64,000 bases of DNA from Pseudomonadota bacterium (GTDB lineage Bacteria > Myxococcota > JACRCW01 > JAFGSX01), in NCBI GenBank assembly GCA_043821645.1, contig JBDRCO010000087.1:1-64000 (forward strand). Reading direction: 5' to 3'. Made by a program: the position numbers and the translations under genes. Below the pieces are notes generated by a model. The model was not told where the DNA came from. It searched no databases and saw only the letters and a program-made list of their open reading frames with translations. Position 1 is the first letter of the stretch. The number at the start of each line of letters is the position of its first letter. Below are positions 30,258 through 50,190 of this stretch, piece by piece.

Positions 30258-33102
<2,845 letters not shown>

Positions 33103-33291
33103 GGCAACCCCCGAGATGGTGGATGGGGAATGCTAGACCAGGGCCGCCCAGGCAGCCAGAACCTGTGGCGTGGCCAGGCGCTCCTGGATGGCGGGGGACC
33201 TTCGCCTGGCCTGGTGCAGTCAGGCGTGAAAGCACTCAAAATAATTGAAAGGATCCATCAGAGTATGCATTGCAGTGCTGGAAAACACTTT

Positions 33292-33306
33292 TGGTGCTAG
33301 TTTTGC
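33292..33306 (+). promoter_or_regulatory. Putative sigma54 -24/-12 promoter
   Basis: TGGTGCTAGTTTTGC (GG-N10-GC with TTGC) inside an AT-rich patch about 180 bp upstream of the giant operon. Confidence 0.5.
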
Positions 33307-33483
33307 CCGCGTTTTGAAGACTGATCACTGCCGACAGGCCAGGACGTCCAGCACCTGGCGACTGGCTCCGCTGACACGGGCGCTGGTGATCGCTCGCCGT
33401 TGTCATTGCGCCGAACACAGGTGCCCCAGGCGAGGGGTCCTGACCTGCCTGGCCGCGCCCCTGCATCTCATCGCTGCCCACGA

Positions 33484-36400
33484 ATGAGGTTCGTCATGAC
33501 CCGTGCCCTGAGAGCAACGCTGCGTCGCCGTGTCATCCGGCAAGCTTCGACCTGCCTATCGCTGGGGCTGCTGCTGGCCTGCCCGCCGACACCGCCGGCC
33601 ACGCCCGACGCAGGCGCGCTGGACGCGTCGCGCATGGACGGCAGCGGTGTGGATTCGAGCGTGCTCGACGTCGCCCCCGGTGACGCGGCTGGGGCGGATG
33701 CCCTGCGCGAGGACGCCTGGACCGACCCCTGTCCCGCGGGAACACTGGGCTGTGCCTGCACGCCCGGCGACAGCTGCGACGACCCCCTGCAGTGTGTGCT
33801 CGACGAGTGCCGCGACTGCGAGCGCGGGGCCCTGGACTGCCGCTGCCTGGACAACAACGCTTGCCTGGTGGGCGCGGTCTGCCGGGCCGACAACGTCTGC
33901 GTGCCCTGCACCCGCGGCAGCGAGGCCTGCTTCTGCCAGGACGACGGCAGCTGCGACGGTGGTCTCGCCTGCCAGCAGGGCGTGTGCGTCATCGAGACCT
34001 GTGTGCCGGGCAGCGAGGGCTGCGCCTGTGACCAGGGGAGCTGCGCCGCCGATCTGTACTGCGGCGGCAGCGGCACCTGCCTGGCCTGCTCGTCCGACGT
34101 CATCGGCTGCGCCTGCGAAGGCAGCGCGTGCAGCAACGGTCTGGTGTGTGACCCGCAGAGCGTGCTGTGCCGCGCGCCCCTGGCCTGCGACGAGCTGAGT
34201 TGCCTGCCGCACCAGCTGTGCGAGCACCGCGCCCACGCCGACGCCGTGTGCGTCGAGGACTGCGAGAGTGGCTACCGCTGGGACAGCGGAACGGGCCAGT
34301 GCGAGATCATCCACAGCAGCTGCGATCCCGGCACCGCGGACAGCATCCTGGACAGTTGCGAGGCCCTGCACATGCACTGTGTGAGCGCGGGCGACCTGGC
34401 GGCCTGCATCGGCTGCCAGGCCGGCTTCGTGCTGGCAGATAGCGCGGACCCGACGGCCGGTTGCCGGGCCGTGGTGGACTGCGACACCCTGGGCTGCGCG
34501 GCCAGCGATCGCAGCTGCGTGCCGGCCACCGACAGCTCGGATGCCCACTGCGGCGACTGCCTGCCACCCCTGGTCGAGGGCGACGCTGGCGGCTGCGTCG
34601 CCAACCCCGCCGCCAACTGCAACGCGGGCAACGATCCCGACTCCATCCTGGCCCAGTGCACCACGGCCCATCGCAACTGCGACGACAGTGGTACGGGCGC
34701 GCGCTGCTCGGACTGCATCTCTCCCTTCGTCGAGAGCCCCTACAGCGGTCTGTGCGAGCGAACCGACGACTGCAGCCGGCTGGGCTGCGACACCTGGCAC
34801 CGCGCCTGCACCGATTTTGCCGACGGGCACTGCACGACCTGCCTGCCCGGCTACGTCGACGCGGGTGGCACCTGTCGCCCGGTGCTCACCTTTGCCGAGG
34901 TCAGCTGCGACGCGGGCACGCAGTTCAAGGTGCACGAGACCTCGACCCAGGACGCCCACTGCATCACCAAGCCCTGTCCCGATGGCCAGGCCTCCAACGG
35001 CGCCACCTGCGTCACCAGCTGTCCGGCCAGCTGCAGCGGGACCGGCAAGACCGGGCGCCTGTGGCCGCACACCCTGCAGAACGGGCGCTGCATCTGCGAG
35101 AGCGCGGACGGCTACTACTTTGACACCACGGCCCTGAGCCAGCAGCCCTGCGACGGTGACGACGACGGCTGGACGCGCCTGGGCGCCCGCTCGGCCCTGC
35201 GCTCCACCGACGCCGAGCTCAAGGCCAACGCCCGCTGCGACCTGCGACAGATCGATCGCTACAAGCTGCTCAACGAGTTCGGTCAGTTCAAGACGGTCGT
35301 CTCGTGCAGCGTTGGCGCAGAGACCTTTCGAGGCCCCTTTGACCCCACCTGCGAGGACGAGACCCTGCCCATTGATCTGTACGAGGTCAACTACCTGGAC
35401 GATGACGAGGCGCTAGCCGTGCAGGGCCCCGACCCGTACGGCATCGGCGCGCGGCGGCTCGGCGCACGCGAGCTCAACAGTCTGACCAAGGCCTGCTCGG
35501 CCCCCAACGACGACTTCAACGGCAACGAGCTGGCGGACGTCGGTGAATGGTCGGGCTCCACCTTCACGTTCACCGACCAGGCCAAGAGGGACGCCCTGAG
35601 CCCCTTCCTGGGCTTCACCTACTTCCTCGAGGTCAACCAGGGCCACTTCGAGGCCTCGCCCTACGGGCCCATTGGCACCTGGGTGGTCGCCGAGCGGCCG
35701 CGCTGCAGCAACGACCTCCCCCTGAAGTACAAGGTCGCCGAGGGGACCTACTGGCAGGGTTGCATGCGCAACCGCGCAGCGCGCTTCGACTCGGAGTCGG
35801 GCGCCTCGCTGGCCGGGCTCGACTTTGCCCGCTACTCCTGCGCGGCGACGACAGGCAGCTGCGACGTCCCCTCCCCCGTCCTGGGCGCGACAGTACCCGG
35901 CGCCGAGCGCGAGCACGACCTGTGCGCGGTCTCGGTGCCCAGCGACGGCTGGCTCGGCATGGACCACCACAGCCAGTTCCAGTGTGTGCAGGTGACGGCG
36001 CAGGCGCCATCGGACCCCGCGGCCACGCCCTACGAACACGCGCTGGGCGATCTGTACAACGGCAGCAGCGGCAACTGGCAGTTCAACCGCTGCGACGCCA
36101 CCAGCAGCACCAGCCAGGGCAACGCCAACGCCAGCGATCCGGGCTTCAGCTGCAGCGCCGTGTATCGCGGCAGCGTGGTCGAGGCCGACGTGGGCTTCGC
36201 GGCCCTGCGCTACCAGAACGACAGCCCGGCCTCGGCCTACCAGGCCGGCTGCCTCAACGAGTGCGCGAGCTGGCTCGACATCTGTCCCGGCTACACCAGC
36301 AACCCGAACACCAACGACGCCTCCTGCCACCCTGACCTCGCCAACTTCGGCGAGATCGTGTGCGGCCACTGCGCGCACGAGGGCCAGAGCTGCGACACCG

Positions 36401-37992
36401 GACAGGCCGGGGTTTGCGCGGCCGGAACCTACGTCTGCACCAACGACGTCGAGAGCTGCGTTCGCAACACCAGCCCGACCACGGGGGATGCGCTGGGAGA
36501 CGGAGTGGACCGCAACTGCGATGGCTTCGACGGCGTCCTGTCGGGTGCCTACGTGTACGTGGCCCCCTCGGGCAACGACTCGAACTCGGGCCTTGCCTAC
36601 GACCGTCCGAAGAAATCGCTGCAGGCCGCCATCGACGCGGCCAACACACAGAACCTCGACGTCATTGCCTACGACGGCACCTACTACCTGACCAGCGGCC
36701 CCGTCACCCTGGGCGCTGGCGTCTCGATGACCGGCGGCTACACAACCTCCAATTGTGCGGCGACCCAGGTGCTGTGCCTGAAGAGCAGCGGCGTGGCCAT
36801 TGTGTTGGTCCCGAATACCACGGCCGTGACCGCCACCAACATCACCTCATCGACGACGATCCAGTATTTCAACTTCGTGGCTCAGGATGCGCAGGGGAAC
36901 ACCGGCAAGCAAGGCAAGAGCTCCTACGGCCTGGTCGCAACCGGGTGCAGCTCCAACCTCCAGTTCACCTCCTGCGCCTTCGTGGCAGGCAAGGGGACGC
37001 CAGGTCTGGCCGGGACAGGCTACCCGGCGGGCAATGCCAACCATGTGGCCCAGGCAGGCTGGGTCGGATCGCAGGGTTTCCCGGGTATCCAGGGTGACGG
37101 TCGTCCCGGCGGCATGGGTGGCATCGCCGTCCCCTGCGAGGTCGGTGGACACACGGGCCAGGGAGGCTGGGGAGGCAACTCGGTCAAGGGTAACAACACC
37201 GGTTACGACGGCAATGTCGGGCTGTCGCCCAGCGGCGCCTTCACCGGGGGCGCCGCGGGTCTGGGCGTCGCGCCCAAGCGCGGCCCCCAGTGCCCGCCCA
37301 CCGGAGCTGCGGGTCAGCCTCCGACGACGCCAGTGGCAGCCGCTAGCTCGGGTGCCCCGGTGGCTGCCTCCTTTGCCTCCACAGGCTACACGCCCAATGT
37401 CGGCGGGAATGGCGCCAACGGGGGCAACGGATCCGGTGGCGGCGGTGGCGGTGGAGGTGGCGGCGGTGACCACAACATCGACTCGAGCGGCGCCTCGGGC
37501 GGTGGCGGCGGCGCGGGAGGCTGCGGCGGCCTCGCTGGCCAGGGCGGCGGTGGCGGTGGCGCCTCGATCGCGGTCTACCTCCACAACGCCTCGCCACGAT
37601 TCACGAACTGCGGATTTCTCGCCTATGGCGGTGCGGCAGGAGGCCATGGGGGTGCAGGCCAGGTCGGTGGCGCCGGCGGTCAGGGCGGCCGCTACAACCT
37701 CGGCACCTGTTACGCAGGCTCAGCCTACGGCGGCGCGGGCGATCAGGACGACGGGTCCATGGGCGGCCAGGGGGGCAACGGAGGCAAGGGAGGGGACGGC
37801 GGCCACGGCGCAGGCGGCGCGGGCGGAGCCACTCTCTGCATCTACAAAGGGGGCAGCTCGGCCCCGAGCCTCTCGCCCGTGCCCGTGCTCGGCACGGATT
37901 GCTACTTGGTGACCGAGGCGGCCAGCGGAGGGACCTCGTCCTCGCCCACCGGTGCGGGCGCCACCGGGCTCAGGCAGGAGGTGTACCCATGA
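33484..37992 (+). CDS. Giant Cys-repeat lipoprotein 1 (about 1500 aa): Cys repeats, unknown central domain, MopE-like motif, DUF1565-like beta-helix, Gly-rich tail
   Basis: Lipobox LLLAC; 5 CxxGxxGCxC units; DGVDRNCDG; YVAPSGNDSNSG...PKKSLQAAI; GGGGGGAGGCGG tracts. Confidence 0.85.
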   Translation: MRFVMTRALRATLRRRVIRQASTCLSLGLLLACPPTPPATPDAGALDASRMDGSGVDSSVLDVAPGDAAGADALREDAWTDPCPAGTLGCACTPGDSCDDPLQCVLDECRDCERGALDCRCLDNNACLVGAVCRADNVCVPCTRGSEACFCQDDGSCDGGLACQQGVCVIETCVPGSEGCACDQGSCAADLYCGGSGTCLACSSDVIGCACEGSACSNGLVCDPQSVLCRAPLACDELSCLPHQLCEHRAHADAVCVEDCESGYRWDSGTGQCEIIHSSCDPGTADSILDSCEALHMHCVSAGDLAACIGCQAGFVLADSADPTAGCRAVVDCDTLGCAASDRSCVPATDSSDAHCGDCLPPLVEGDAGGCVANPAANCNAGNDPDSILAQCTTAHRNCDDSGTGARCSDCISPFVESPYSGLCERTDDCSRLGCDTWHRACTDFADGHCTTCLPGYVDAGGTCRPVLTFAEVSCDAGTQFKVHETSTQDAHCITKPCPDGQASNGATCVTSCPASCSGTGKTGRLWPHTLQNGRCICESADGYYFDTTALSQQPCDGDDDGWTRLGARSALRSTDAELKANARCDLRQIDRYKLLNEFGQFKTVVSCSVGAETFRGPFDPTCEDETLPIDLYEVNYLDDDEALAVQGPDPYGIGARRLGARELNSLTKACSAPNDDFNGNELADVGEWSGSTFTFTDQAKRDALSPFLGFTYFLEVNQGHFEASPYGPIGTWVVAERPRCSNDLPLKYKVAEGTYWQGCMRNRAARFDSESGASLAGLDFARYSCAATTGSCDVPSPVLGATVPGAEREHDLCAVSVPSDGWLGMDHHSQFQCVQVTAQAPSDPAATPYEHALGDLYNGSSGNWQFNRCDATSSTSQGNANASDPGFSCSAVYRGSVVEADVGFAALRYQNDSPASAYQAGCLNECASWLDICPGYTSNPNTNDASCHPDLANFGEIVCGHCAHEGQSCDTGQAGVCAAGTYVCTNDVESCVRNTSPTTGDALGDGVDRNCDGFDGVLSGAYVYVAPSGNDSNSGLAYDRPKKSLQAAIDAANTQNLDVIAYDGTYYLTSGPVTLGAGVSMTGGYTTSNCAATQVLCLKSSGVAIVLVPNTTAVTATNITSSTTIQYFNFVAQDAQGNTGKQGKSSYGLVATGCSSNLQFTSCAFVAGKGTPGLAGTGYPAGNANHVAQAGWVGSQGFPGIQGDGRPGGMGGIAVPCEVGGHTGQGGWGGNSVKGNNTGYDGNVGLSPSGAFTGGAAGLGVAPKRGPQCPPTGAAGQPPTTPVAAASSGAPVAASFASTGYTPNVGGNGANGGNGSGGGGGGGGGGGDHNIDSSGASGGGGGAGGCGGLAGQGGGGGGASIAVYLHNASPRFTNCGFLAYGGAAGGHGGAGQVGGAGGQGGRYNLGTCYAGSAYGGAGDQDDGSMGGQGGNGGKGGDGGHGAGGAGGATLCIYKGGSSAPSLSPVPVLGTDCYLVTEAASGGTSSSPTGAGATGLRQEVYP

Positions 37993-40637
37993 CGCGGACC
38001 AGCACCCGAGACCGGCCGGCCAAGGGCTGTGGGTTCAGACTCGACGCGGACGGGCAACGACGCGCCGCGCTCTGCGGGCCCCTCCTCCTGCTCCTCTCCA
38101 CGGCGTGCCCGGAACCACCGCCAGCCAGCGATGCGAGCGCGGTGGATGCCCGGGTCGCGATCGACGCCGCCAGCGATGGAGGCAGTGTCGATGTGGCAAG
38201 CCAGGACAGCGCCACGCCCGACACCACGGCCCCTGACCAGGGTGTCAACGACAGCGCGATCGCTCCCGAGTGCGAGACCTCGGCAGACTGCGACGGCGAG
38301 ACCGCGACCCAGGGCTACCTGTGCCTGGCCGGGACCTGCACGCGCTGCGCCTCCAACAACCAGTGCGCGACCGACGAGCACTACGGCGACCAGGCACGCT
38401 GTTCGAGCGGCCGCTGCAACAGCTGCCCCGACGGCAACCAGGGATGCCCTTGCCTGCAAAGTGGGGCCTGCGCCGGCGTGCTGCAGTGCGTGTCCGGCAC
38501 CTGCCTGGACTGCGCGCGCGGCAGCGAGGGCTGTCGCTGCTACAGCAACGCCAGCTGCGACGGCACCCTGGTGTGCACGTCCGACGTGTGCGTGCCCTGC
38601 ACGCCGGGCAGCCTCGGCTGCCGCTGCGATGCGGGGGCGTGCCAGGGCGACCTGCAGTGCAGCAACGACCTCTGCGCCCCCCGCGCCTGCCCGGCCGGCC
38701 AGGAGGGCTGCGCCTGCGACGGGACCAGCTGCGACAGCGGTCTGTACTGCACCGGCGCTGGCCTGTGCGCCGTCTGCGTCGACGACGTGGTGGGTTGCCC
38801 CTGCACCGAGGGCACCTGCAGCGGAGGCCTGGCGTGCGACGGCACCAGCACCCTGTGCCGCGAACCCGTGCTGTGCGCGGCGGCCGGCTGCGTGGCGCAC
38901 CAGCGCTGCGACGAGCCGCCGGGCGAGGACGCGGTCTGCCTGCCGGATTGTACGGCCGGCTACTTCTGGGACAGCTCGAGCCAGAGCTGCCAGGTCACCC
39001 GCCCCAACTGCGAGCCCGGCGCCGAGGGCAGCATCCTGGCGGTGTGCCAGGCGCTGTACATGACCTGCGTGGCGTCGAGCAGCGGCGCCACCTGCAGCGG
39101 TTGCGAGGACGGAGCCAAGCCGGTGAGCAGCGACGTCACCGCGGGCTGCCGCCCGGTGTGGACCTGTGCCACGCTGTGCACCGCCACGGGGCGGGACTGC
39201 GTGAGCGAGGCCGTGGATGTGACCGACGCCACCTGCGGCGGATGCTTGCAGGACCTGGTGGCGCTGGACCCGGCCCACGTCGAGACGGGATGCACCGACG
39301 CCATCTACGCCGACCCGGCCGCTGCCCCGGGGGGCAAGGGTGGGCGCTGGGCGCCGCTGGCGAACCTGGCGTCGGCGGTGACGGCGGCGGCCAGCCTCGG
39401 CCTCGACGTCAAGCTGGCCACGGGCACCTTCAACCAGAGCGCGCGCATCGTGCTGCGCGATGACTTGGCCCTGCTCGGCGGCTACGACCCTGCGACCTGG
39501 CAGCGAACCTCCGAGCGCACGCGCGTGGTCACGGCCGACAACGTGGTGTTCCAGCTCAACGCGGTCAACGACGTCACCCTGGAGCAGCTCGATGGCGAGA
39601 GCGCTGGCTCCTGGGGCTCGTCCAACGGTTTTGGTCTGCTCGGCCGCAACGGCAGCAACCTGGTCGTCCGCAACTGCCTGCTGCGCGCGCGCGCCGGCAA
39701 CCCGGGCGCCTCCGGGACCGAGCAACACACTCCCGCGCTGGAAGGCGAAGCAGGGAGCCCGGGTACCCTGGGCTATGGCTCGGCCACCGCGTTCACCCTG
39801 ACGGGTGGCGCCGGTGGCGCCTGCCCGTGCGACGCCAGCCACGGCGGCGGGAGGGGCGGCGAGGGCCGCTGGGGTGACAGCACGACCGGAGGCCCAGGCG
39901 AGCAGGCCCCCGGTAGCAGCGCGACCCCGGGCCTGGGCGTGCCCCCGCTGCTCGGCAACCACAACCCCACACTCGAGTATGTGGGTGGCGACGGCGAGCC
40001 CGGCAGCGAGGGCGCTGCGGGCGCGGCCGTGCCGGGCTTGTTCGACGTCACGTACTACCGCGCGCGCGCCGGTGCCGATGGGCAGCCTGGTACGCCTGGC
40101 TTCGGGGGCTGTGGTGGGGGGGGGGGAGGTGGCGGCGTGGCCTCGAGCCTGCAGGCGGCGGGCAGCAGCGGCGGCGGCGGTGGCGGTGGCGGCTGCGGCG
40201 GTCTCGGCGGCGGTGGCGGGAGCGGCGGCGGCGGCAGCTTCGGCATCTACCTCTTCAACTACAGCTTCGTGATCGAGGACTGCCACGTCATCGCCGGCGA
40301 CGGCGGCGCCGGTGGCGACGGAGCGCCAGGTCAGCCCGGCGCTGTCGGTGGTGCGCCGGGACGCGCGGCCGTGGGCACCAACAACAAGAGCGTGGGCTAC
40401 ACCTCGCAGCAGGGCACGGCGTCCAACGGCGGCCGCGGTGGTTTTGGGGGCGCTGGTGGCGGCGGAGGTCCTGGCGCTGGCGGCGCGGGTGGCCCCAGCA
40501 TCGGCATCGTGATCGGCGGCACGGCCAGCGGCACGGTGCTGCACACAACCGTCGAGATAGGACAGGCCGGTGTGGGTGGCGGGGGTCCGGGAACACCCGG
40601 TCCGGACGGCTTCAGCGCCGAGCAGTACACGCCCTGA
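37989..40637 (+). CDS. Cys-repeat lipoprotein 2 (about 880 aa), paralog of protein 1 lacking the central domain
   Basis: ATGA overlap with gene 1; LLSTAC lipobox; colinear Cys modules; LLGGYD...W beta-helix; Gly-rich tail. Confidence 0.85.
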   Translation: MTRTSTRDRPAKGCGFRLDADGQRRAALCGPLLLLLSTACPEPPPASDASAVDARVAIDAASDGGSVDVASQDSATPDTTAPDQGVNDSAIAPECETSADCDGETATQGYLCLAGTCTRCASNNQCATDEHYGDQARCSSGRCNSCPDGNQGCPCLQSGACAGVLQCVSGTCLDCARGSEGCRCYSNASCDGTLVCTSDVCVPCTPGSLGCRCDAGACQGDLQCSNDLCAPRACPAGQEGCACDGTSCDSGLYCTGAGLCAVCVDDVVGCPCTEGTCSGGLACDGTSTLCREPVLCAAAGCVAHQRCDEPPGEDAVCLPDCTAGYFWDSSSQSCQVTRPNCEPGAEGSILAVCQALYMTCVASSSGATCSGCEDGAKPVSSDVTAGCRPVWTCATLCTATGRDCVSEAVDVTDATCGGCLQDLVALDPAHVETGCTDAIYADPAAAPGGKGGRWAPLANLASAVTAAASLGLDVKLATGTFNQSARIVLRDDLALLGGYDPATWQRTSERTRVVTADNVVFQLNAVNDVTLEQLDGESAGSWGSSNGFGLLGRNGSNLVVRNCLLRARAGNPGASGTEQHTPALEGEAGSPGTLGYGSATAFTLTGGAGGACPCDASHGGGRGGEGRWGDSTTGGPGEQAPGSSATPGLGVPPLLGNHNPTLEYVGGDGEPGSEGAAGAAVPGLFDVTYYRARAGADGQPGTPGFGGCGGGGGGGGVASSLQAAGSSGGGGGGGGCGGLGGGGGSGGGGSFGIYLFNYSFVIEDCHVIAGDGGAGGDGAPGQPGAVGGAPGRAAVGTNNKSVGYTSQQGTASNGGRGGFGGAGGGGGPGAGGAGGPSIGIVIGGTASGTVLHTTVEIGQAGVGGGGPGTPGPDGFSAEQYTP

Positions 40638-40695
40638 CGCACACCACGAGCCCATCACGATGGCAGGGGCGTGGTCCCTTGCTGCGGAGAACACC

Positions 40696-43600
40696 ATGAT
40701 GCGACACACCCTGATCCTGGCCTTGCTGGCGTTGGCGACTCTGCTGCCCGGTGCCTGCGACTGCGGTGGGCCGCCGGCCGAGGACGCGGGGCCTGGCAAG
40801 GACGCGACCGTCGCGGTCGACGCGTCCGGCGCCGACAGCGCCGAGGTCGATGCGGGTGGGGCCGACGCGGTGACGCCGGATGCCACGACCGTCGACGCGG
40901 CGGGTTGCACGGCGGGCCACGAGAGCTGCCGCTGCCTGCCCGGCGCGGCCTGCGCGTCCAGCGAGCTGTATTGCGGCGACGGCGTGTGCCGACGGCCGGC
41001 CTGCCGGGTGGGCGAGCTGGGCTGCGCCTGCGACGTGGACTTCACCTGCGGCCAGTCCGACGACGACAGCTGGTTGCTGTGCGAGGCCGGGCTGTGCCGG
41101 CGCCCGAGCTGTCCCGCAGGTAGCGTGGGCTGCGCCTGCACCAGCAGTCACGGCTGCGACCCCGGGCTGAGCTGCGTCGCCGACGCGCAGGGCGAGCGCT
41201 GCCAAATCGACGACTGCCCGGTGGGCGATCTGGGCTGCGCCTGCTACCGCGAGCGCACCTGCAACCCCGATCCCTCGGGAGTGGCCCTGGCCTGCGATGC
41301 CAACCAGTGCGTGCGCTCGGCCTGCGCGCCGGGCAGCGAGGGCTGCCTGTGCCGCGCGGACTACAGCTGCGGCAGCGGCATGATCTGCCGTGACGGCGCG
41401 CGCTGCGAGGTGCTGCGCTGCACCCCCGGCTCGGCCAGCTGCGAGTGCCTGCCCGGCGGCTACTGCAACAGCCCGACCCTGGTGTGCGAGGCGAGCAGCA
41501 GCCAGTGCGTGGAGCAGGCCTGCGATCCCGGCACCGACGGCTGCAGCTGTCTGTCCGACGGGACCTGCGGCCTCTCCAGCGCGGGCACGGCCCTGGTGTG
41601 CGCGGGCGATCGCTGCGTGGCGCCCTCGTGCACGCCCGGCAGCCTTGGCTGCGCCTGCACCGCCCAGGGCAGCTGCGCCTCGGCCAGCGCGATCTGCACG
41701 GCGGGCTGGTGCATGGCGACCAGCTGCACGGCCGGCGGTACCAACTGCACCTGCGGCGGCTCCGGCACCTGCGACGTCGGCCTGGCCTGTCTCAACGGCG
41801 ACATCTGCGTCGACGACACCGGTTACGTGGGTGGCGTCTGTCTACCCAACGGCAGCTGCCGCGCCGGTGGCCGCTGCGTCAGCGGCCTGTGCGTGCCCTG
41901 CCTGGGTGGCAGCCTGGGCTGCAGCTGCGAGTCGGGCTGGTGCCAGACCGGCCTCGCCTGCCTGGCCGGCGCCTGCGTGTCCCAGCAGTCCCTGGCGCGA
42001 TCGCGGCCTGCCAACCCCCGCTGCTACACACCCTGCAAGGCCGACCTGCTGCGCAGCGACAACACGCTCGCGCGCTGTAGCAGCCAGGGCCTGCTCGACG
42101 GCTGCATCGGTGACAACGTCTGCACCGAGGGCTCGTGCGTGCCCAGGACGGTCTCGCCGTTCTGGAACACGGGCTCGACCGCGGTTCCGTTCTGCGCCTC
42201 CGAGCTGGACTGCCCGGACTTCCAGACCTGCATCGAGGGTCACTGCTACTCGGACTGCGAGCGCGACGGCGACTGCGCCCCCGGCCTGGCCTGCAGTCGC
42301 AAGGTCTGCCGCTCGCCCTGCCTGGCCGGTGGCGACGAGTGCCCGGACGGCATGTACTGCGAGGTCGGCAGCGGCGGCAACGCAGGCTTCTGCAGCGCGC
42401 TCGGGACCACGCTGGATACCGAGACCAGCGTCGAGGGCGGCAGCTTCACCCTGAGCAGCCCCGCCCTCAGCTTCTCGCCCGTGCTGGTCGACGGCGCCTT
42501 CCGCGTGTTCAACCGATCCCACAACATGCGCGAGTTCCACGTGCAGAAGAAGTTCCATGGCCTGTACGACGCCAGCGGCGCCGTGCTGGCCCGGGTGGAC
42601 GAGTTCCGCACCACCTGCGACTGGAGCAACCCCGACCCGGACATCTGCCCCCTGTCCTGGCTCGAGCTGAGCGTGGACAACGGTGCCACCACCACCGACG
42701 GCGATCTGGCCTTCGAGCTCGCCGGCAACTGCCCCGATCTGCCGGCCTGCGGCGACAACGACGTGTGCCCCGCGGGGATGTCCTGCGGCCAGGGTCTGTG
42801 CTTCTGCGACGACGCGAGCTGCGGTGACGCCTGGTCCTGCACCGCCACCGTCCACGTGGGCGCCATCGCCGACCGGCCGGGCACGGCGGCCCGGGTCAGC
42901 GGCGTGCTCGAGATCAACGGCCAGGGACTGGGCGCGCAGCGCGTCAGCCTGAGCTACCGCGAGTCACAGGCCGGGCAGTGGAAGGGCACCATGTACTCGT
43001 TCGCCAACTTCGGCGACCAGAACATGGACCTCTGGCTGCAGAGCGACCGCTCCGACGACACGAAGCTCGAGGGCGTCGAGAACGCCTTCCTCAAGCGCTG
43101 GGTCAATTTCAGGCGCGGCATCAACGGTCTGGTCACCCTGGACGAGTTCGAGGCCATGCTCAACGCAACGCTCACCGAGTCGTGGCGCTGGCCCTCGGTC
43201 AAGCAGGCCTGCCAGCAGCAGTATGCGACCGAGAACTGCTACCTGACCCAGCAGGGCCCGGTGGTGTATTCCAACGACAACATCCGCAACCCCGTGCCCT
43301 CGGGCGTGGTGGACATGCCCTTCGCGGTCAACCTGCGGCCCGATCCCGACAACAACCACGCGCTGACCGGCAAGGTCGAGAGCCGCCTGACCCTGCAGTA
43401 CGCGGGCGGCCCGGGCCTGACGCTGGAGTTTGCCGATGCCCCCGGGACCTGCAGCGCGAACTCGCGGCCCGAGAGCTGCACCAGCGTGGTGCTGGCCATG
43501 CGGAGCCCCAGCCAGAGCGGCAACCAGGGCGTCGACATCCGCGTGGGTGGCCGCTACCTCACCGGCGAGAGCGACGCCACCTGCTCGAGGCGAACCAACT

Positions 43601-46600
43601 TCGAGCAGGCCAGCGTGCCCTGGCTGGTGCCGGGCTTCGTGGCACCGGGTTTCGTCTACGCCGACGCGGCACAGCGTCTGGGCGCGCCCCCCTACAGCTA
43701 CGAATGCCGGGACACGCTGCTGCCCTTCTACCCGGCCAACCCGTCCCAGCTGACCGCGCTCAAGCCACTGAACACGAGCATGTCCTCGGCCAACGTGGTG
43801 CCGGACGGCCGCACCCGCCAGCGCCGGCTCGAGCTGATCGACGGCTTCATGGTCAACGGCCGGGATCTCTATCTGCTGGTGCGCGAGACCTTCTCGGTGC
43901 CCACCAGCGGCATCACCGAGCGCAGCTTCGCCGGCTACAGCCTGATCGCGCTCCGACGCGCGCCGGCGACACTCGAGACAGCCGACGCGAACCAGAACGG
44001 CGTGGCCGACGTGTTCGACGGCGCCGACTACAGCGCCGACATCCGCCCCACGCCCACCGACGACCTGCTCTCGAGCGCCTGCAGCGCCGCCGTGATCGGC
44101 CCCATCCCGGGCATCAACCAGGTCACCAACGGCAACGCCGGCACCGTGGCCATGACCATCCTCGACGGCATCAAGCCTGGCGGCACGCTGCAGCAGGTCT
44201 ACCCGCGCGGGGCCTATACCGGGCCGTGGGAGCCGCACTACTGGTGCGAGGACACGGGGCTGCTCGACGGTGGCATCGCCGACAAGGGACTCAATGGCAC
44301 GCCCATCTCGCCCAACACGGACACCTGCAGCGAGACGCAGGACAGCCGCGGGCGCACGGTCAAGCCCAACAACGGATGGTGCGAGGACGGGGGGCCGGGT
44401 TCGGTGAGCGATGGCTGCGCCCTGGCCACCGATGCCACGGACTGCGGGCTTCGCTACTTCGGCGACTTCCGCGAGCCCTGCCCTGGCGGTAGCCGTGTCG
44501 TGTACTTCTTGCTCAACAAGGACACGGCGGGCGACCAGAACTGGGTCGCCAACACCCCCTGCCAGATCGACGAGAGCATGTCCTGCTGGGACGTGTTGCT
44601 GCACTGGGTCGCCACCGGGTCCGCGGTCCTGGACCCGCCCTGGACCTGCGCCGACCCCGACCAGGTGCTGTGCAGCGGAAACCGCGTGGACCTGCGCTCG
44701 CAGAAGAAGTTCTATCTGGCCTCGGGCAGCCCGGCCGCGGTGTTCGAGCCCCTGGACTCCGTCATCGAAAGCGGCTTCCGCTACAAGACGCGCTTCCAGT
44801 CGCGTGGCGGACAGAGCCTGGGCTTCGCGCCTGACCTCTGCGATACAGCCTCCGACAGCATCCCCTACTGCTACGACCCGGCCAGCATCGAGACGGTGCA
44901 GCAGCGGGTGGACTGCCTGGTGGACATCTACAAGAACCGCTACGACAACCTGACCGTCGACCAGCAGGGCAAGCTCAAGGCTTTTCTCACCCGCGATCTG
45001 GCCTACGACACGACCAGCGGCCGCGACGGCTTCGAGCGCCTCAACGCCGAGCTGCTGATCATGCTGGGCGACGAGATGTACACCCGCGCTTTCTCGTCGC
45101 GCTTCGACCTGGCGCAGACGCGCATGCGCAGCTTCGAGGGCTCGGCCTTCGAGGCCGGCGGCATCAACCTGTCGGGGGGCGCTGGCGACGAGATGTACAG
45201 CCTGTACCTGGCGGTGCAGTACGATCAGATGGTGCTCGACCGCTTCAACCGCCTGGGCCCAGCGCTGTGGGCCAGCCTGGACGGGTCCGCGGACCGGCGC
45301 TTCGTGACCCAGGAGACCGTGTCCAGCTACCTGGTCAAGGTGGCCAGGGCCTCGACGCAGAAGTCCAAGGCCATGAGCGAGATCGCCGCCCGCTACCAGG
45401 GCTTCAACCGCTCGGACCTGGCGCGGCGCGTGGTCGAGCGCGCCTACACGGCCACCTACCTCGAGTCCATCCTGATCGGGCGCATGATGGACGCGCTCAT
45501 GGACACCCTGGCCCCGGACGACAAGCCGCAGGTGGCCCTGCTCAAGGAGGAGATCGCCCGCAGCTACCGCGTGGCCATGAGCGACATGCGCAACGTCTAC
45601 CTGCAGATCACCGACGAGATCACGTACTTCGGCTTCGCCCCTGACTACGTCCCGTTCCCGGCGCTGGACAACGTGTTCTTGACCAACAACGCCTTCGAGG
45701 TGCTGTACGACGCGGCGGCCGAGAAGGTCGATCTTGCCGCCGAGCGCGAGGCCACGGCGCTTGCCGACAACCGGGACTTCGAGACCGACAGCCAGGCTTT
45801 CCAGCGCGAGCTGGTGACCCTGCGCACCAGCTACAACTCACAGCTCGGCGACCTTTGCGGCACTTTTGTTGGCGACGACGGAGGCGTCTACGCCGCCACC
45901 AGCGACAACGCCTCCCACAACGAGGCTGCCGCCAGGTACGGCGATCCCTGCGGTCTGATCGGCAACGGCGCGCTGTTCCAGGCCATGGGAGATGTCGACC
46001 TCAAGGGGCTGGACCTGCAGGCGGTGATAGGCACGCAGGAGAAGATCACCGAGCAGATCAAGATAGAGATGCAGCGGGTGGCCGATTACTGCGACGAGGT
46101 GCGCGAGACCGTCGACTTCGAGTACCAGCAGGCGGGCGCCAAGATCGCCCTCAACACCCTCATCGGCATCACCCAGGGCACCATCGAGGAGGCGCGCAAC
46201 GTCTACGAGATGACCCGCGACTTCGGAGACGCCACCAAGTGCAACGTCGGCACCGCCACAGACTGCTGGCAGGTGCCGGTGGCCGTGGCCTCGCTGACCG
46301 TGGCCGGCGGGGTGCTGCTGACGGCCGAGATCATCGGCAAGGCCGCCATCCTGGCGATGCAGGAGGGCATCGAGGGCATCGACCGCACCACGGCCAGGTT
46401 CGTGGGCATGCAGCAGTGCGACTACGCCCAGGTTGACAGCCAGGCCACGGTCATGAACCTGGTGCTCGACCTGCTGGGCACCGACGTCGACCGCGTGCGC
46501 GCCGAGTACGAGATCAAGCTGGCCCTGAGCGAGGTGCAGAGGCTGCGCAACCAGGCCACGGCCCTGCAGGCCGAGATGAAGGAGCAGGAGCAGCTGTTGA

Positions 46601-47421
46601 TCAACGTCGAGGCCGCGCGCAACGACCCCAACGTGCGCATCTACCGCAACGACGCCATCCTCAATGCCGACGTCGCGTTCAAGGATGCGCTGGCCGCGGT
46701 CTACAAGGCCACCAAGATCTACGAGTATTACACCAGCCAGAGCTACGGCGACCTCGACAAGCTGTTCCTGGTGCGGATGGTGGCAGCGGGCGACTACAAC
46801 CTGCAGAACTACCTGATCCAGCTCGGCAACGCCTTCTCGGACTTCCTCGAGCAGTACGGCAACCCCGACACCCGGGTCGAGATCTACTCGCTGCGCGACG
46901 ACATCCTGGGCATCCCACGCACCGGCGAGGACCTGCGGCCGCTCACCGAAGCCCAGCGCATCGCCCTGTTCCGCGCCAAGCTACAGGACGGTTCGCTGCT
47001 GGATCCCCAGGGCTACCTGGTGGCGCCCTTCGCGACCAGCTTCCGCAAGCTGTCGCCGCTGACCCGCAATCACAAGGTGCTGTCGACCGAGGTCGAGCTG
47101 GACGGCGAGGGCGTGGGGGACGAGGTGGCCCGCGTCTACGTTCGGCAGCAGGGCACCAGCACCGTGCGCACGGTCGCGGACGACAAGCTGTACTTCCAGT
47201 TCCCGCCGCGCACCGCCGTCATCAACACCTTCATGAACGGCGAGCGCATCTTCGGCGATCCGCTGTACACGAGCTATCGCCTGCGCGACCGGCCCTTCGT
47301 CAACTCGGCCTGGGCCCTGGTGTTCAACCAGCAGGACGAGGTGAATAACCTCGACGTCGACCTCAATGACATCGACGACATCCGGCTGCTGGTCTACTAC
47401 ACCGACTTCACGGCGTACTGA
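40696..47421 (+). CDS. Giant Cys-repeat lipoprotein 3 (about 2240 aa) with a TcA-like helical/pore and C-terminal module
   Basis: GGAGA RBS; LPGAC lipobox; about 10 CxxGxxGCxC units; helical C-terminal third with a hydrophobic segment; ends DIDDIRLLVYYTD. Confidence 0.85.
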   Translation: MMRHTLILALLALATLLPGACDCGGPPAEDAGPGKDATVAVDASGADSAEVDAGGADAVTPDATTVDAAGCTAGHESCRCLPGAACASSELYCGDGVCRRPACRVGELGCACDVDFTCGQSDDDSWLLCEAGLCRRPSCPAGSVGCACTSSHGCDPGLSCVADAQGERCQIDDCPVGDLGCACYRERTCNPDPSGVALACDANQCVRSACAPGSEGCLCRADYSCGSGMICRDGARCEVLRCTPGSASCECLPGGYCNSPTLVCEASSSQCVEQACDPGTDGCSCLSDGTCGLSSAGTALVCAGDRCVAPSCTPGSLGCACTAQGSCASASAICTAGWCMATSCTAGGTNCTCGGSGTCDVGLACLNGDICVDDTGYVGGVCLPNGSCRAGGRCVSGLCVPCLGGSLGCSCESGWCQTGLACLAGACVSQQSLARSRPANPRCYTPCKADLLRSDNTLARCSSQGLLDGCIGDNVCTEGSCVPRTVSPFWNTGSTAVPFCASELDCPDFQTCIEGHCYSDCERDGDCAPGLACSRKVCRSPCLAGGDECPDGMYCEVGSGGNAGFCSALGTTLDTETSVEGGSFTLSSPALSFSPVLVDGAFRVFNRSHNMREFHVQKKFHGLYDASGAVLARVDEFRTTCDWSNPDPDICPLSWLELSVDNGATTTDGDLAFELAGNCPDLPACGDNDVCPAGMSCGQGLCFCDDASCGDAWSCTATVHVGAIADRPGTAARVSGVLEINGQGLGAQRVSLSYRESQAGQWKGTMYSFANFGDQNMDLWLQSDRSDDTKLEGVENAFLKRWVNFRRGINGLVTLDEFEAMLNATLTESWRWPSVKQACQQQYATENCYLTQQGPVVYSNDNIRNPVPSGVVDMPFAVNLRPDPDNNHALTGKVESRLTLQYAGGPGLTLEFADAPGTCSANSRPESCTSVVLAMRSPSQSGNQGVDIRVGGRYLTGESDATCSRRTNFEQASVPWLVPGFVAPGFVYADAAQRLGAPPYSYECRDTLLPFYPANPSQLTALKPLNTSMSSANVVPDGRTRQRRLELIDGFMVNGRDLYLLVRETFSVPTSGITERSFAGYSLIALRRAPATLETADANQNGVADVFDGADYSADIRPTPTDDLLSSACSAAVIGPIPGINQVTNGNAGTVAMTILDGIKPGGTLQQVYPRGAYTGPWEPHYWCEDTGLLDGGIADKGLNGTPISPNTDTCSETQDSRGRTVKPNNGWCEDGGPGSVSDGCALATDATDCGLRYFGDFREPCPGGSRVVYFLLNKDTAGDQNWVANTPCQIDESMSCWDVLLHWVATGSAVLDPPWTCADPDQVLCSGNRVDLRSQKKFYLASGSPAAVFEPLDSVIESGFRYKTRFQSRGGQSLGFAPDLCDTASDSIPYCYDPASIETVQQRVDCLVDIYKNRYDNLTVDQQGKLKAFLTRDLAYDTTSGRDGFERLNAELLIMLGDEMYTRAFSSRFDLAQTRMRSFEGSAFEAGGINLSGGAGDEMYSLYLAVQYDQMVLDRFNRLGPALWASLDGSADRRFVTQETVSSYLVKVARASTQKSKAMSEIAARYQGFNRSDLARRVVERAYTATYLESILIGRMMDALMDTLAPDDKPQVALLKEEIARSYRVAMSDMRNVYLQITDEITYFGFAPDYVPFPALDNVFLTNNAFEVLYDAAAEKVDLAAEREATALADNRDFETDSQAFQRELVTLRTSYNSQLGDLCGTFVGDDGGVYAATSDNASHNEAAARYGDPCGLIGNGALFQAMGDVDLKGLDLQAVIGTQEKITEQIKIEMQRVADYCDEVRETVDFEYQQAGAKIALNTLIGITQGTIEEARNVYEMTRDFGDATKCNVGTATDCWQVPVAVASLTVAGGVLLTAEIIGKAAILAMQEGIEGIDRTTARFVGMQQCDYAQVDSQATVMNLVLDLLGTDVDRVRAEYEIKLALSEVQRLRNQATALQAEMKEQEQLLINVEAARNDPNVRIYRNDAILNADVAFKDALAAVYKATKIYEYYTSQSYGDLDKLFLVRMVAAGDYNLQNYLIQLGNAFSDFLEQYGNPDTRVEIYSLRDDILGIPRTGEDLRPLTEAQRIALFRAKLQDGSLLDPQGYLVAPFATSFRKLSPLTRNHKVLSTEVELDGEGVGDEVARVYVRQQGTSTVRTVADDKLYFQFPPRTAVINTFMNGERIFGDPLYTSYRLRDRPFVNSAWALVFNQQDEVNNLDVDLNDIDDIRLLVYYTDFTAY

Positions 47422-47565
47422 TCGGCTTCGCGCTTTGAAGCCCGGCTGATCGAAGCTCGCGCGGACCGTTGGCCTGCCCCGGATGCGTGCTCCTCCGGCC
47501 AGGGGTTCACGCGCGGGCCGCGCGTGGTGATCCCGGGCCGTGAAACGCGGTGCTGGTGGCGCTGG

Positions 47566-47640
47566 GCAGACCCCTGAAACGCACGAGCAGAGCCCTGCAG
47601 GGCCACATGCAGACCCTGGAAGAGTCACAGGAAGACCCTG
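47566..47640. repeat. Four degenerate direct repeats with 21-22 bp period
   Basis: Cores GCAGACCCCTG, GCAGAGCCCTG, GCAGACCCTG, GAAGACCCTG at 47566, 47587, 47609, 47631. Confidence 0.55.
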
Positions 47641-47734
47641 GCTTGTGCCCTGGCAACCTTCCGCACCGAGTTCTCAGGCAGGCCAAACGCGCTTCATCGA
47701 CGTGGAGCGGGAAGGTGCAGGCCGGCGTGCTCGC

Positions 47735-50083
47735 TCAGCTGTGCTCGCAGTATGCACCGCGGCACGAGGCGCCGGTGGGACAGTCCACCAGGACGCAGCG
47801 ATCCGCGTTGCCGGGGACGCCATCGTCGCAGTCGCTGTCGGCCCGGCACGCGTTGACGTCGGGCACGCAGATGCCGCCGCTCACGCAGTCCACGTCGCCG
47901 GTGGCACCCGTGGGATCGCTGGTGCAGATCGCGATCTCGCAGTGCTCGCCGGTGACGCAGTCGGCGTCGCCCGCGCAGTTGAGGCTGTTGCTGGGCGGGG
48001 TGCAGAAGCCTCCCACCACGCAGGGCGGACAGGAGCCGCTGAGGCTGTCGCAGGCCGGGCACACGCCGCCGGTGATCTCGCAGGCCCAGCCCGCCGGACA
48101 GTCGGCGGCGCCGCTGCAGGTCCCCGTCGGCGGTGGCACGCACACGCCGCTGGCCACGCAGGGCATGGCCGGGCAGGGCGCGCCGGTCTCGCATACCGGA
48201 CACGAGGCCTCGAACTGGCAGATCAAGCCGGAGGGGCACTCCGCGTCGACGGTGCAGAATCCCGTGGGCACGCACACGGCGCCGCCGTAGCAGTCACCGG
48301 GTTGCGTGGTGCCGCCCTCGCGCACGGCGCAGCCCGCCACCTGGCAGGTGAAGCCCGCCGGGCAGGTCAGGGTGTCATCGCACTCGCCCGTCGACGGAGG
48401 CACGCAGAAGCCACCGACGGAACAGGGCTCGCAGGCCGCACCGGTCGGGCAGGGCGGGCACACCCCGCCGTAGTACTGGCAGGACCAGCCGCTCGGGCAC
48501 TCGCTGTCCGCCTGGCACTCGCCGGTGCTCGGCGTGACGCACACGCCCGCGGACACGCAGGGCATGCCCGTGCTGTCGCCGGCACAGGTCTCGCCGGCCG
48601 GACATTCACGACACACCGGGTTCATGTCGCAGACCATGCCTCGTGGACAGTCCACGTCGGCGCTGCACATGCCCGAGGGCACGCACATCGACCCGCCGTA
48701 GCAATCGCCCGAGACCACGGTGCCGTCGCTGGAGGCGGCGCAGTCGTAGACCTGCTCGCAGGCAAAGCCCGGCGGGCAGGGATGGGTGCCGTCGCATTCG
48801 CCCGTCGTCGGCGGCTGGCAAAAGCCTCCCGCCACGCAGGCATCGCAGGAAGTCGAGCCCGCGTCGCAGGGCGGGCACACGCCGCCGTAATAGGTACAGC
48901 TCCAGCCCGAGGGGCAGTCGCCATCCCCTGTGCACTCGCCCGCTCCGGGGGTGGTGCACACGCCACGGGTCATGCAGGGCATGTCAGGGCAGGTCTCGCC
49001 GCTGGGACACACCGGACAGCTCGCCTCGAGCTGGCACACCATGCCGCGCGGGCAGTCCAGGTCGACGCTGCACTGCGTGTTCGCCGGTGGCTCGCAGAAG
49101 CCACCTGCCACGCAGGGCGGGCACGGGCTGCCAGGTGCGCAGTCCGGGCAGCCGCCGTAGAACGAGCAGGTCCAGCCCATGGGGCATTGGCTGGCGTCGC
49201 TGCACTCGCCGCCCATTGGAGGCACGCACAGACCACCGCTGGTGCAGGTGGTGTCGCAGTCCTCGCCCTCGCGGCAACCCGGGCACGCTCCGGTCATCTG
49301 GCACACGAAGCCGGGCGGGCAGTCGATGTCGGCCGCGCACTCGCTACCCGACGGCGGGGCGCAATAGCCGGCCATGATGCAGGGCGGGCAGGCCTCGCCG
49401 GGCATGCAGTCCGGGCAGGCTCCCGTCCACAGACAGGAGAAGCCCGGGGGACAGTCCGAGGCACCCAGACACTCGCCGCCGATGGGAACGCACATGCTGC
49501 CGCCGTAACAGGGCGTGGGCGGGCAGTCGGCGCCGGCGCAATCCACGGCGGGCGTGTCGCAGCCTCGCGTGGACTGGCAGGCATAGCCCTCGGGGCAGTC
49601 GATGTCGGCGCTGCATTCGCCTGTGGCCGGGGGTACGCACACGCCTCCGCCTATGCAGTAGTCGCCGGTATCGCGCTCGGCCCCGCAGTACGCGATCTCG
49701 CAGGTGAAGCCAGCCGGACACTCGCCGTCGCTCTGGCAGCCCGTGCTCGCCGGCACGCACACCCCGCCCGCGGCACAGCGCTCGTCTCCGCTCGAGGTGG
49801 CCTCGCAATAGAAGACCTCACAGGTGAAGCCCGCGCCGCAGTCGGCATCGGCCTGGCAACCCGTTCCCTGCACCTCGCACACGCCGCCCGAGACGCAGAA
49901 GTCGGCGCCGTCCTCGACGCCGCAGTAGGCCAGGTTGCAGCGCAGCCCCGCGCCGCAGTCCGCATCGACACTGCAGGCCACGCTGTGATGGGTGACGTTG
50001 GGCTTGGTGCCCGGCTCTTCCGGCGGCGGACAGGCCGTCAGGTACAGTGCCCCCAGACTCACAACTGCGATGAGCCACTTCAT
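47735..50083 (-). CDS. Cys-repeat lipoprotein (782 aa, about 17 CxxDxDC..GxxC units)
   Basis: AGGAGG RBS; lipobox LTAC; protein is almost entirely tandem repeats. Confidence 0.85.
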   Translation of the reverse strand: MKWLIAVVSLGALYLTACPPPEEPGTKPNVTHHSVACSVDADCGAGLRCNLAYCGVEDGADFCVSGGVCEVQGTGCQADADCGAGFTCEVFYCEATSSGDERCAAGGVCVPASTGCQSDGECPAGFTCEIAYCGAERDTGDYCIGGGVCVPPATGECSADIDCPEGYACQSTRGCDTPAVDCAGADCPPTPCYGGSMCVPIGGECLGASDCPPGFSCLWTGACPDCMPGEACPPCIMAGYCAPPSGSECAADIDCPPGFVCQMTGACPGCREGEDCDTTCTSGGLCVPPMGGECSDASQCPMGWTCSFYGGCPDCAPGSPCPPCVAGGFCEPPANTQCSVDLDCPRGMVCQLEASCPVCPSGETCPDMPCMTRGVCTTPGAGECTGDGDCPSGWSCTYYGGVCPPCDAGSTSCDACVAGGFCQPPTTGECDGTHPCPPGFACEQVYDCAASSDGTVVSGDCYGGSMCVPSGMCSADVDCPRGMVCDMNPVCRECPAGETCAGDSTGMPCVSAGVCVTPSTGECQADSECPSGWSCQYYGGVCPPCPTGAACEPCSVGGFCVPPSTGECDDTLTCPAGFTCQVAGCAVREGGTTQPGDCYGGAVCVPTGFCTVDAECPSGLICQFEASCPVCETGAPCPAMPCVASGVCVPPPTGTCSGAADCPAGWACEITGGVCPACDSLSGSCPPCVVGGFCTPPSNSLNCAGDADCVTGEHCEIAICTSDPTGATGDVDCVSGGICVPDVNACRADSDCDDGVPGNADRCVLVDCPTGASCRGAYCEHS

Positions 50084-50190
50084 GATAATGCCCTCCTGGA
50101 GTTCCCTCCGCAGCGCATGCTAGCACAGGCGCCGGCACTTCTCATCTGCACCCGTGTCGCTATACTCCGCTCGCCACGCCGGAGGTTCTC

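Follow-up and report, generated by a model that had tools for sequence, protein, structure and literature searches.

A lipoprotein locus of Myxococcota probably encodes a divergent, Sec-exported relative of the Tc toxin translocator

We analysed a 64,000-nucleotide stretch of DNA (the window: positions 1 to 64,000 of the forward strand of contig JBDRCO010000087.1, assembly GCA_043821645.1) from a bacterium of the Myxococcota lineage, in which three long open reading frames (ORFs) on the plus strand, p1, p2 and p3 in that order, occupy positions 33484-47421. We propose that p3 is probably the A component, or translocator, of a lipid-anchored and Sec-exported relative of the Tc (ABC) toxins that is specific to Myxococcota. 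Tc toxins are soluble complexes of about 1.7 MDa, and their study has centred on insect pathogens. An earlier reading of the window, made from the sequence only, knew of no characterised equivalent to the three proteins; that view is not retained here, as the Tc/ABC toxin kind matches at the level of the fold and of the family context. The p3 system is a divergent Sec-exported variant of the Tc kind and not a wholly new system, because a TcB/TcC-like RHS gene is the commonest neighbour of the family, including at a paralogous locus in the same genome.

The structural evidence comes from the C-terminal part of p3 (40696..47421, plus strand), a 2241-residue lipoprotein with lipobox Cys21 and an Asp/Ala (D/A) linker, ten Cys repeats (about residues 71-600), a middle region (600-1041) and a TcA-like region (1042-2241). 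An AlphaFold2 model of the last 1200 residues (1042-2241), built from a 41-row alignment, had a mean pLDDT of 72 and a pTM of 0.51. In a Foldseek search of the PDB with this model, ranks 1-22 were all TcA subunits (TcdA1, TcdA4, XptA1, XptA2, YenTcA and TcaA-TcaB, from Photorhabdus, Xenorhabdus, Yersinia and Morganella), with E values of 1.8e-9 to 6e-5, a probability of 1.00, 843-1007 aligned columns and 10-13% identity; rank 23 was 6l7i_A, the TcB-binding fragment of TcdA1 (TMt 0.50), and the first non-TcA fold was ALIX, at E 7.5e-4. At fold level, these matches bear out the sequence-only reading, which had recognized a TcA-like module in p3 and expected a toxin-like or pore-like fold there. 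With VIA-align, model residues 601-1197 were placed on TcdA1 residues 2006-2516, C-end to C-end, over 395-409 residues at Z 10.6-10.7; this part of TcdA1 we take to run from the last stretch of the linker through the channel helices into the TcB-binding domain. The corresponding part of p3 (residues 1642-2238, window 45619..47409, plus strand) would be the channel with the C-terminal beta domain, the equivalent of the TcB-binding domain. The shell part was colinear with TcdA1 but aligned poorly (552-564 residues, rmsd 36-38 Å). Within the C-terminal 1200 residues, a single stretch, the conserved residues 1866-1878 (window 46291..46329, plus strand), had an alignment-averaged hydropathy above 1.0 in the family alignment; it lies between long helices after a conserved KC.VGT.TDC loop, within a low-pLDDT hairpin (model residues 759-869, pLDDT below 50), and is on this model a candidate membrane-inserting tip. 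An alpha-helical channel with a hydrophobic tip ahead of a docking domain, as in TcA, was found in p3 at the level of the fold only.

Compared with the TcA subunits TcdA1, XptA1/XptA2, YenA1/YenA2 and TcaA-TcaB, p3 is alike in its predicted C-terminal architecture of about 1200 residues, which joins a helical shell segment to a long channel of two helices, hydrophobic at its tip, and puts a beta domain at the chain end, and, at family level, in the adjacent TcB/TcC-like gene. However, sequence similarity to these proteins was not detectable, and the N-terminal half of p3 consists instead of a lipoprotein signal, a D/A linker and a stalk of EGF/DPY/EB-like Cys repeats. In Pfam searches, VRP1 (PF03538), neuraminidase-like (PF18413) and receptor-binding domains gave no match, and the TcB-binding domain TcA_TcB_BD (PF18276) was found neither in p3 (E<=0.1) nor in any of 25 family members (E<=1). 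In an independent feature search of the ESM Atlas, the best named clusters for p3 were PF18276 TcA_TcB_BD clusters, whose scores of 0.88 and 0.82 both fall under the 0.9 bar and serve as a lead only. So p3 is predicted from its model to fold and work like the C-terminal half of TcA, and it stands outside the sequence-defined TcA family. Canonical, PF18276-positive TcA genes were also observed, in 10 of 251 sampled Myxococcota genomes (loci L020-L029), some as ORFs of 3000-4000 aa, and five genomes (G014, G067, G104, G111 and G186) carry both the canonical and the lipoprotein type.

The family to which p3 belongs has no name. No Pfam or NCBIfam family matched p1, p2 or p3 at E<=0.1, and phmmer against PDB sequences gave no match for p3 and a single weak match for p1, to an unrelated viral protein (E 0.097). 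When p3 residues 1270-2241 served as the query of a word-indexed search, at least 492 proteins (7998 candidates scored) were nevertheless recovered, 42-60% identical over essentially the whole 972 residues. Among the relatives listed, all were called 'hypothetical protein' in their sources except one 'EB domain-containing protein', and the named sources were Myxococcota, Polyangia, Bradymonadia, Haliangium, Vulgatibacter or 'Deltaproteobacteria'. Pfam matches in the 25 family members were limited to weak DUF7107, Dumpy_DPY and EB and some TSP_3, all within the N-terminal repeats, and the conserved C-terminal 1600 residues gave none. This A-like C-terminus was detected in 41 of the 251 sampled Myxococcota genomes and in 36 of 122 genera (40/250 genomes when G195 is left out). 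In addition, a distant subfamily was seen, with ORFs of about 1240 aa that are 24-28% identical to the last 400-490 residues of p3 (G192:C103:20216-21469, G114:C102:5182-6618, G109:C23:32449-33525 and G042:C4:370668-371840), and in these the A-like protein may take a shorter form. A literature search, with supplementary tables outside its reach, found no account of a lipoprotein-type or Myxococcota TcA-like family, and the string 'Myxococc' is absent from the main text of a survey of Tc loci (PMC7861908). Because the p3 family is invisible to Pfam and NCBIfam, Tc surveys based on domain models would probably miss it.

It is the genomic context that settles the Tc-like reading of p3. Two p3 paralogues occur in the host genome (G000; 7.07 Mb in 140 contigs, 94.7% complete), on contigs C42 and C118, and each is followed by a gene with the middle domain of p1 (p1-mid; residues 540-990 of p1, window 35101-36453, plus strand). 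On C118, a B/C gene comes first, directly ahead of a small lipoprotein gene, and the A-like and then the p1-like gene come after it. The B/C ORF of 2113 aa, the sole TcdB_toxin_midN match in the host genome, consists of SpvB, FG-GAP repeats, TcdB_midN, RHS/YD repeats and an Rhs-associated core; by these domain matches, its layout is that of a fused TcB-TcC. The FG-GAP/TcdB_midN region we take to be the propeller that docks on TcA. The partner genes at related loci are alike to TcB-TcC and RHS/YD toxins in having SpvB, the FG-GAP propeller, TcdB_midN, RHS, the Rhs core and a variable C-terminus; they differ in that B and C are fused in one ORF that carries a cleavable-type signal peptide (in the 25 ORFs with a complete 5' end), and none lies in the window. 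Six other contigs of the host genome (C31, C68, C43, C3, C134 and C110) bear large RHS-repeat ORFs of 862-2636 aa without a TcdB_midN match, which could be teneurin-like or other capsule toxins.

The same order of B/C, small lipoprotein, A-like and p1-like genes was observed at G002:C120, G014:C13 and G014:C56, and variants of the module occur at G002:C44 (two divergent copies) and G007:C46. In a first set of 11 loci with an A-like gene, drawn from six relatives and the host genome, p1-mid lay downstream in 9 and a B/C gene was present in 7. A second set, which may overlap the first, was taken from 227 relatives in genome_contigs, whose best 80 matches correspond to 67 distinct loci; with p3 residues 600-1268 as a single query no relatives were found, whereas an alignment-based search did find them. 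In this set, p1-mid adjoined the A-like gene at 49/67 loci: downstream at 46 of the 50 whose flank on that side was 3 kb or longer, and upstream (in window order) at three, all from one metagenome-assembled genome. Of the 39 loci whose upstream flank reached 8 kb, 22 had a B/C gene on that side; where both flanks were long (26 loci), 17 had one within about 10 kb in either direction. The linkage of an A gene to TcB/TcC that characterizes Tc loci was present at C118 and at these 17 loci, and absent in the window. Locus L077 of this set, from Anaeromyxobacter terrae SG22, a culturable and non-pathogenic carrier, holds A-like, p1-like and B/C genes. These results show that relatives of p3 usually form part of a module of four genes, for a TcB/TcC-like RHS capsule that bears a signal peptide and a variable C-terminal payload, a small lipoprotein, an A-like lipoprotein and a p1-mid lipoprotein. 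The sequence-only reading had expected the three window genes to co-occur in related genomes and had noted that TcB/TcC genes were lacking nearby. The first expectation holds for the p1-mid and p3 relatives; it fails for p2 and for the beta-helix/Gly-rich tails of p1 and p2, which had no counterpart in any of the 67 related loci and are, as the comparison of loci suggests, lineage-specific additions. The three genes as such are not the conserved unit, and the usual order, A-like and then p1-like, is the reverse of that in the window. As to TcB/TcC, the observation is correct for the window and does not extend to the family.

In a FastTree tree of 62 A-like C-termini, p3 paired with its closest relative, L040, and this pair was sister to the B/C-linked paralogue on C118; the tree was midpoint-rooted, its groupings were read without support values, and five loci with high-scoring segment pairs of fewer than 900 residues were left out. 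The window locus is, in our reading, a duplicate of a complete module that has undergone rearrangement: the B/C and small lipoprotein genes have been lost, and p1 lies upstream of the A-like gene instead of downstream. In this duplicate, p1 would have gained a surface-type beta-helix/Gly-rich tail and p2 would be a partial duplicate of p1. The two proteins are 47% identical over 286 aa in the Cys-rich part and 36% identical in the C-terminal beta-helix/Gly-rich part, and the 450-residue middle domain of p1 is missing from p2.

An unlikely alternative for the window, and for other loci without B/C, is a device that works independently of B/C, with the A-like lipoprotein alone acting as a surface-tethered pore-forming toxin or membrane-perturbing adhesin, and with p1 and p2 providing adhesion through their beta-helix/Gly-rich domains. 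The 64-kb window holds no B/C gene, A-like genes outnumber B/C genes three to one in a genome that is largely complete, and p3 retains all family-invariant residues together with the hydrophobic tip; moreover, the tails of p1 and p2 are like widespread Myxococcota surface-protein modules. However, the equivalent of the docking domain is as well conserved in p3 as in B/C-linked members, with 44-52% identity to the paralogues, which argues for a retained partner, and the B/C protein encoded on C118 could act in trans.

The module differs from classical Tc toxins in its export signals, which were judged by eye and by regular expression. All three window proteins begin with a positive stretch followed by a hydrophobic stretch that ends at a lipobox-type cysteine (LLAC-33 in p1, LSTAC-40 in p2 and LPGAC-21 in p3), the features of Sec/SPII lipoproteins, with p2 and p3 being non-canonical at position -3; the Sec-dependent lipoprotein export that had been predicted for the three proteins is supported to this extent. 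A lipobox-type N-terminus was recognized by regular expression in 89/113 A-like database proteins starting with M, 22/28 small proteins and 43/53 p1-like proteins, and all ten p1-like ORFs that were inspected singly had one. Each of the 25 B/C ORFs that are complete at the 5' end carried a hydrophobic AxA-type signal segment (19 by regular expression, six by eye), which directly precedes the conserved SpvB start, G-V-S-x-x-R-[VL]-x-L-P-x-G-P-G. Judged by these motifs, Sec or lipoprotein signals are present on all four parts of the module, which sets it apart from classical Tc toxins, and neither the A-like, the small, the p1-like nor the B/C proteins follow the Tc pattern of absent signal peptides and release by lysis. 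In PMC10847048, YenTc is described as having no signal sequences and as being released by lysis that depends on a type 10 secretion system (T10SS). Two further differences are that p3-type modules have two extra conserved lipoprotein partners and that B/C stands ahead of A in the gene order.

With Sec signals on every component, the parts would meet in the periplasm; the lipid-anchored A-like oligomer might insert its channel, from the periplasmic side, into the outer membrane of the producing cell itself, as a secretion pore that releases the payload outside. We consider such an export conduit improbable, as the long disulfide-rich stalks and the accessory lipoproteins suit display better than a periplasmic role, and a payload set free unfolded outside the cell would lack an evident way into a target.

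The second conserved partner of the A-like protein, p1-mid, was modelled confidently by AlphaFold2 (pLDDT 78.6, pTM 0.81), and its fold searches were empty: the best Foldseek match had E 1.8 in the PDB and E 0.83 in BFVD, and a wide VIA-align search returned none of 48,161 chains at Z>=2. The domain is widespread: a library of 1.84 billion proteins contains 428 representatives at E<=1e-3, of which 152 reach E<=1e-30. It opens with an invariant C-D-x-D-x-D-G-W motif and also contains a D-x-N-x-N-G-x-x-D-x-x-E-W motif, both of which, we assume, resemble calcium-binding loops. A complex prediction of p3 600-1199 with p1 540-939 gave no answer (score 0.01) and carries no weight either way. The small lipoprotein between the B/C and A-like genes (G000:C118:64254-64868; L018:10755-11369, minus strand) comprises one Cys repeat and a domain of about 130 aa without a Pfam or NCBIfam match; its copies at different loci are 26-37% identical, and given this conservation it is unlikely to be a polymorphic immunity protein.

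The tails of p1 and p2 resemble another group of proteins. In the ESM Atlas, their C-terminal domains matched clusters of the Myxococcota 'PGRS family' at TM 0.85-0.91, whereas DUF1565 and right-handed beta-helix clusters reached only TM 0.33-0.42 with the p2 domain; MopE-motif and DUF1565 families are present in the related clusters. On these predicted structures, the two domains resemble a widespread Myxococcota module. They are alike to the 'PGRS-like', DUF1565 beta-helix and MopE-motif surface proteins of Myxococcota, but are fused behind a Cys-repeat stalk, in p1 also behind p1-mid.

At the C-termini of the B/C proteins, variation was observed. Alignments of the B/C ORFs end near residue 1912 of 2113, and among 24 C-termini, one contained PT-HINT with HNH, one Peptidase_C58, one Peptidase_M91 (just under the cut-off) and two collagen repeats; the remaining 19 had no Pfam match past the RHS/YD shell, save one sub-threshold SHD1. 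This variation has, as far as the sequences indicate, the pattern of polymorphic payloads. The families seen include a nuclease, and protease families that are better known from eukaryote-directed effectors. The collagen triple-helix repeats, which stand in place of an enzyme-like payload, end the B/C ORFs at L096 and L098.

We give little credence to a non-toxic surface structure, in which a TcA-like fold has been co-opted for adhesion, as an envelope scaffold or for social behaviour, and the adjacent RHS gene reflects shared regulation only. It is in keeping with the lack of sequence similarity to TcA, and RHS/YD proteins have non-toxin roles as well, according to PMC13018210; nevertheless, it is hard to square with the conserved gene order beside a TcB-type capsule that includes the FG-GAP/TcdB_midN region, and with nuclease and protease payloads. 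The same paper describes the teneurin-like proteins (TLPs) of Myxococcota as predicted Sec/SPII lipoproteins and says that they have no obvious delivery machinery (PMC13018210). Unlike them, p3-type modules have a candidate delivery subunit adjoining the capsule gene. The FN-plug, NHL propeller and YD shell that TLPs combine in one chain were not found in p1-p3, which have no RHS/YD repeats, and the B/C partner on C118 has the TcB-type SpvB/FG-GAP/TcdB_midN layout, not that of a TLP.

Several results weigh against a Tc relationship of p3. Over the full model, the global TM score to TcA was 0.14 and the root-mean-square deviation 30-45 Å, which is expected, because a long multi-domain model does not reproduce the domain placement of the assembled toxin. 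The VIA-align Z of 10-11 is in the range of unrelated helical proteins, and designed helical repeats and 14-3-3 proteins outscored TcA on the shell part; since unrelated helical repeats reach an equal Z there, we take the VIA result as giving position without added significance. In terms of sequence, none of the 25 family members matched any TcA Pfam family, PF18276 had no match anywhere in the genome at E<=1, and a family-profile search of the PDB returned no TcA chain at E<=10, only 17 unrelated weak matches (E 0.39-8.8). When the family was compared by hhalign with an alignment of eight canonical TcA C-termini from Myxococcota genomes, 33 extreme C-terminal columns were aligned, at a probability of 0.5% and E 0.13. 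These columns hold a motif, RD.R..PF....W.L....D...I.D[IV].L.V.YT, at the equivalent chain end of the p3 family and canonical TcA, and this shared motif is suggestive of a relationship, though not significant. With respect to gene content, 9 of the 26 long-flank loci and the window locus itself are without a B/C gene, genome G034 has an A-like gene yet no PF12256 match, and no immunity-like gene was evident between the B/C and small lipoprotein genes on C118. It is nevertheless very improbable that p3 is unrelated to TcA and that the fold match is a long-helix artefact of a medium-confidence model, as its pTM, its low-confidence hairpin, the helical-noise Z and the hhalign result might suggest: the 22 best Foldseek matches are one family from four genera and lie 5-6 orders of magnitude ahead of the next fold, the beta-domain-only chain 6l7i_A matches too, and the independent linkage to TcB/TcC-like genes would then be a coincidence.

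The organization of the window locus is as the sequence-only reading had described it. The stop of p1 (33484..37992, plus strand, 1502 aa) and the start of p2 (37989..40637, plus strand, 882 aa) share an ATGA at 37989-37992, and a 58-bp spacer (40638-40695) separates p2 from p3, with GGAGA upstream of the p3 ATG; coordinates and junctions were read directly from the sequence. GC3 is 0.87-0.93 in the p1 and p3 frames, and p2 falls outside a coding-composition filter solely because of its Gly-rich GC2. In all three proteins, a D/A/S/G-rich linker directly follows the lipobox cysteine and Cys-rich repeats come next, the CxxGxxxCxC motif occurring four, four and ten times in p1, p2 and p3 with a period of about 30-36 aa; the lipobox, linker and common repeats that had been noticed are thus present in each. 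In p1, the Cys-rich region (about residues 83-540) precedes p1-mid, and the tail spans residues 991-1502; p2, with its lipobox at Cys40, has a Cys-rich region paralogous to that of p1, no p1-mid, and a 'PGRS-like' beta-helix/Gly-rich C-terminal domain at residues 440-882 (window 39306-40634), so that two of the three proteins end as had been proposed. Phage tail or contractile-injection parts were considered for p1-p3 and rejected, no neighbours of that type being seen, and a teneurin-like nature was rejected as YD/RHS repeats were not found with Pfam and NCBIfam. A Pfam scan of 14 neighbouring ORFs detected no TcB/TcC, RHS, phage-tail or holin family, and a promoter and terminator scan of 32700-50300 gave nothing beyond shuffle expectation.

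Convergent with p3 lies p4 (47735..50083, minus strand), a fourth Cys-rich lipoprotein gene that the sequence-only reading had not included. Its 782-aa product has the lipobox LTAC with Cys18, contains 123 cysteines in DCP.G..C-type repeats and matches TIGR04201 (Myxo_Cys_RPT, E 3.2e-6); weak paralogues occur on contigs C26 and C37, and p4 is possibly associated with the p1-p3 locus. The flanks are otherwise of housekeeping type, with gap-pgk, pgi, a GH123-like hydrolase and a xanthine-dehydrogenase-like enzyme. At window positions 30258-32726 (minus strand), the Gp_dh_N and Gp_dh_C (GAPDH) domains and a phosphoglycerate kinase domain lie in a single 822-aa frame; the same stop-free frame is present in G001 and G002 (80-81% identity), gap and pgk are separate or stop-separated in other relatives, and a second, unfused pair lies on C94 of the host genome. 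The frame looks like a lineage-specific gene fusion.

With p3 as the A component of a Sec-exported Tc relative, a mechanism can be outlined. After Sec export and lipidation, the A-like protein would form an oligomer held on the cell envelope by its D/A linker and disulfide-rich repeat stalk, and the B/C capsule would dock onto its C-terminal domain. Contact with a target membrane would then lead to insertion of the hydrophobic tip and to translocation of the payload. The p1-mid lipoprotein would be indispensable as an accessory subunit, with a part in targeting, triggering or assembly. The p3 of the window might use the C118 B/C capsule in trans, or might serve as a pore or adhesion device by itself. 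Roles of p1-p3 in adhesion, contact or predation, which the sequence-only reading had also suggested, are putative.

More tentatively, Myxococcota may possess a hitherto unrecognised, contact-dependent, Tc-like injectosome of Sec-exported parts that is assembled outside the cytoplasm and fires RHS-encapsulated payloads into prey or rivals, with disulfide-rich stalks whose lipid anchors fasten it to the outer membrane and with p1-mid as its targeting or trigger subunit. With Sec or lipoprotein signals on the A and B/C subunits and on both other subunits, the Tc translocation principle would also exist in predatory and social bacteria of the soil, as an apparatus bound to the cell. The p3 module is a concrete candidate for the delivery of capsule-type toxins in Myxococcota, and it adds two uncharacterised conserved partners, of which p1-mid has a confident model that matches no known fold. 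If the proposal is true, the injectosome would supply the 'missing delivery machinery' for at least some of the capsule-type (RHS/TcB-TcC-like) toxins of social and predatory bacteria.

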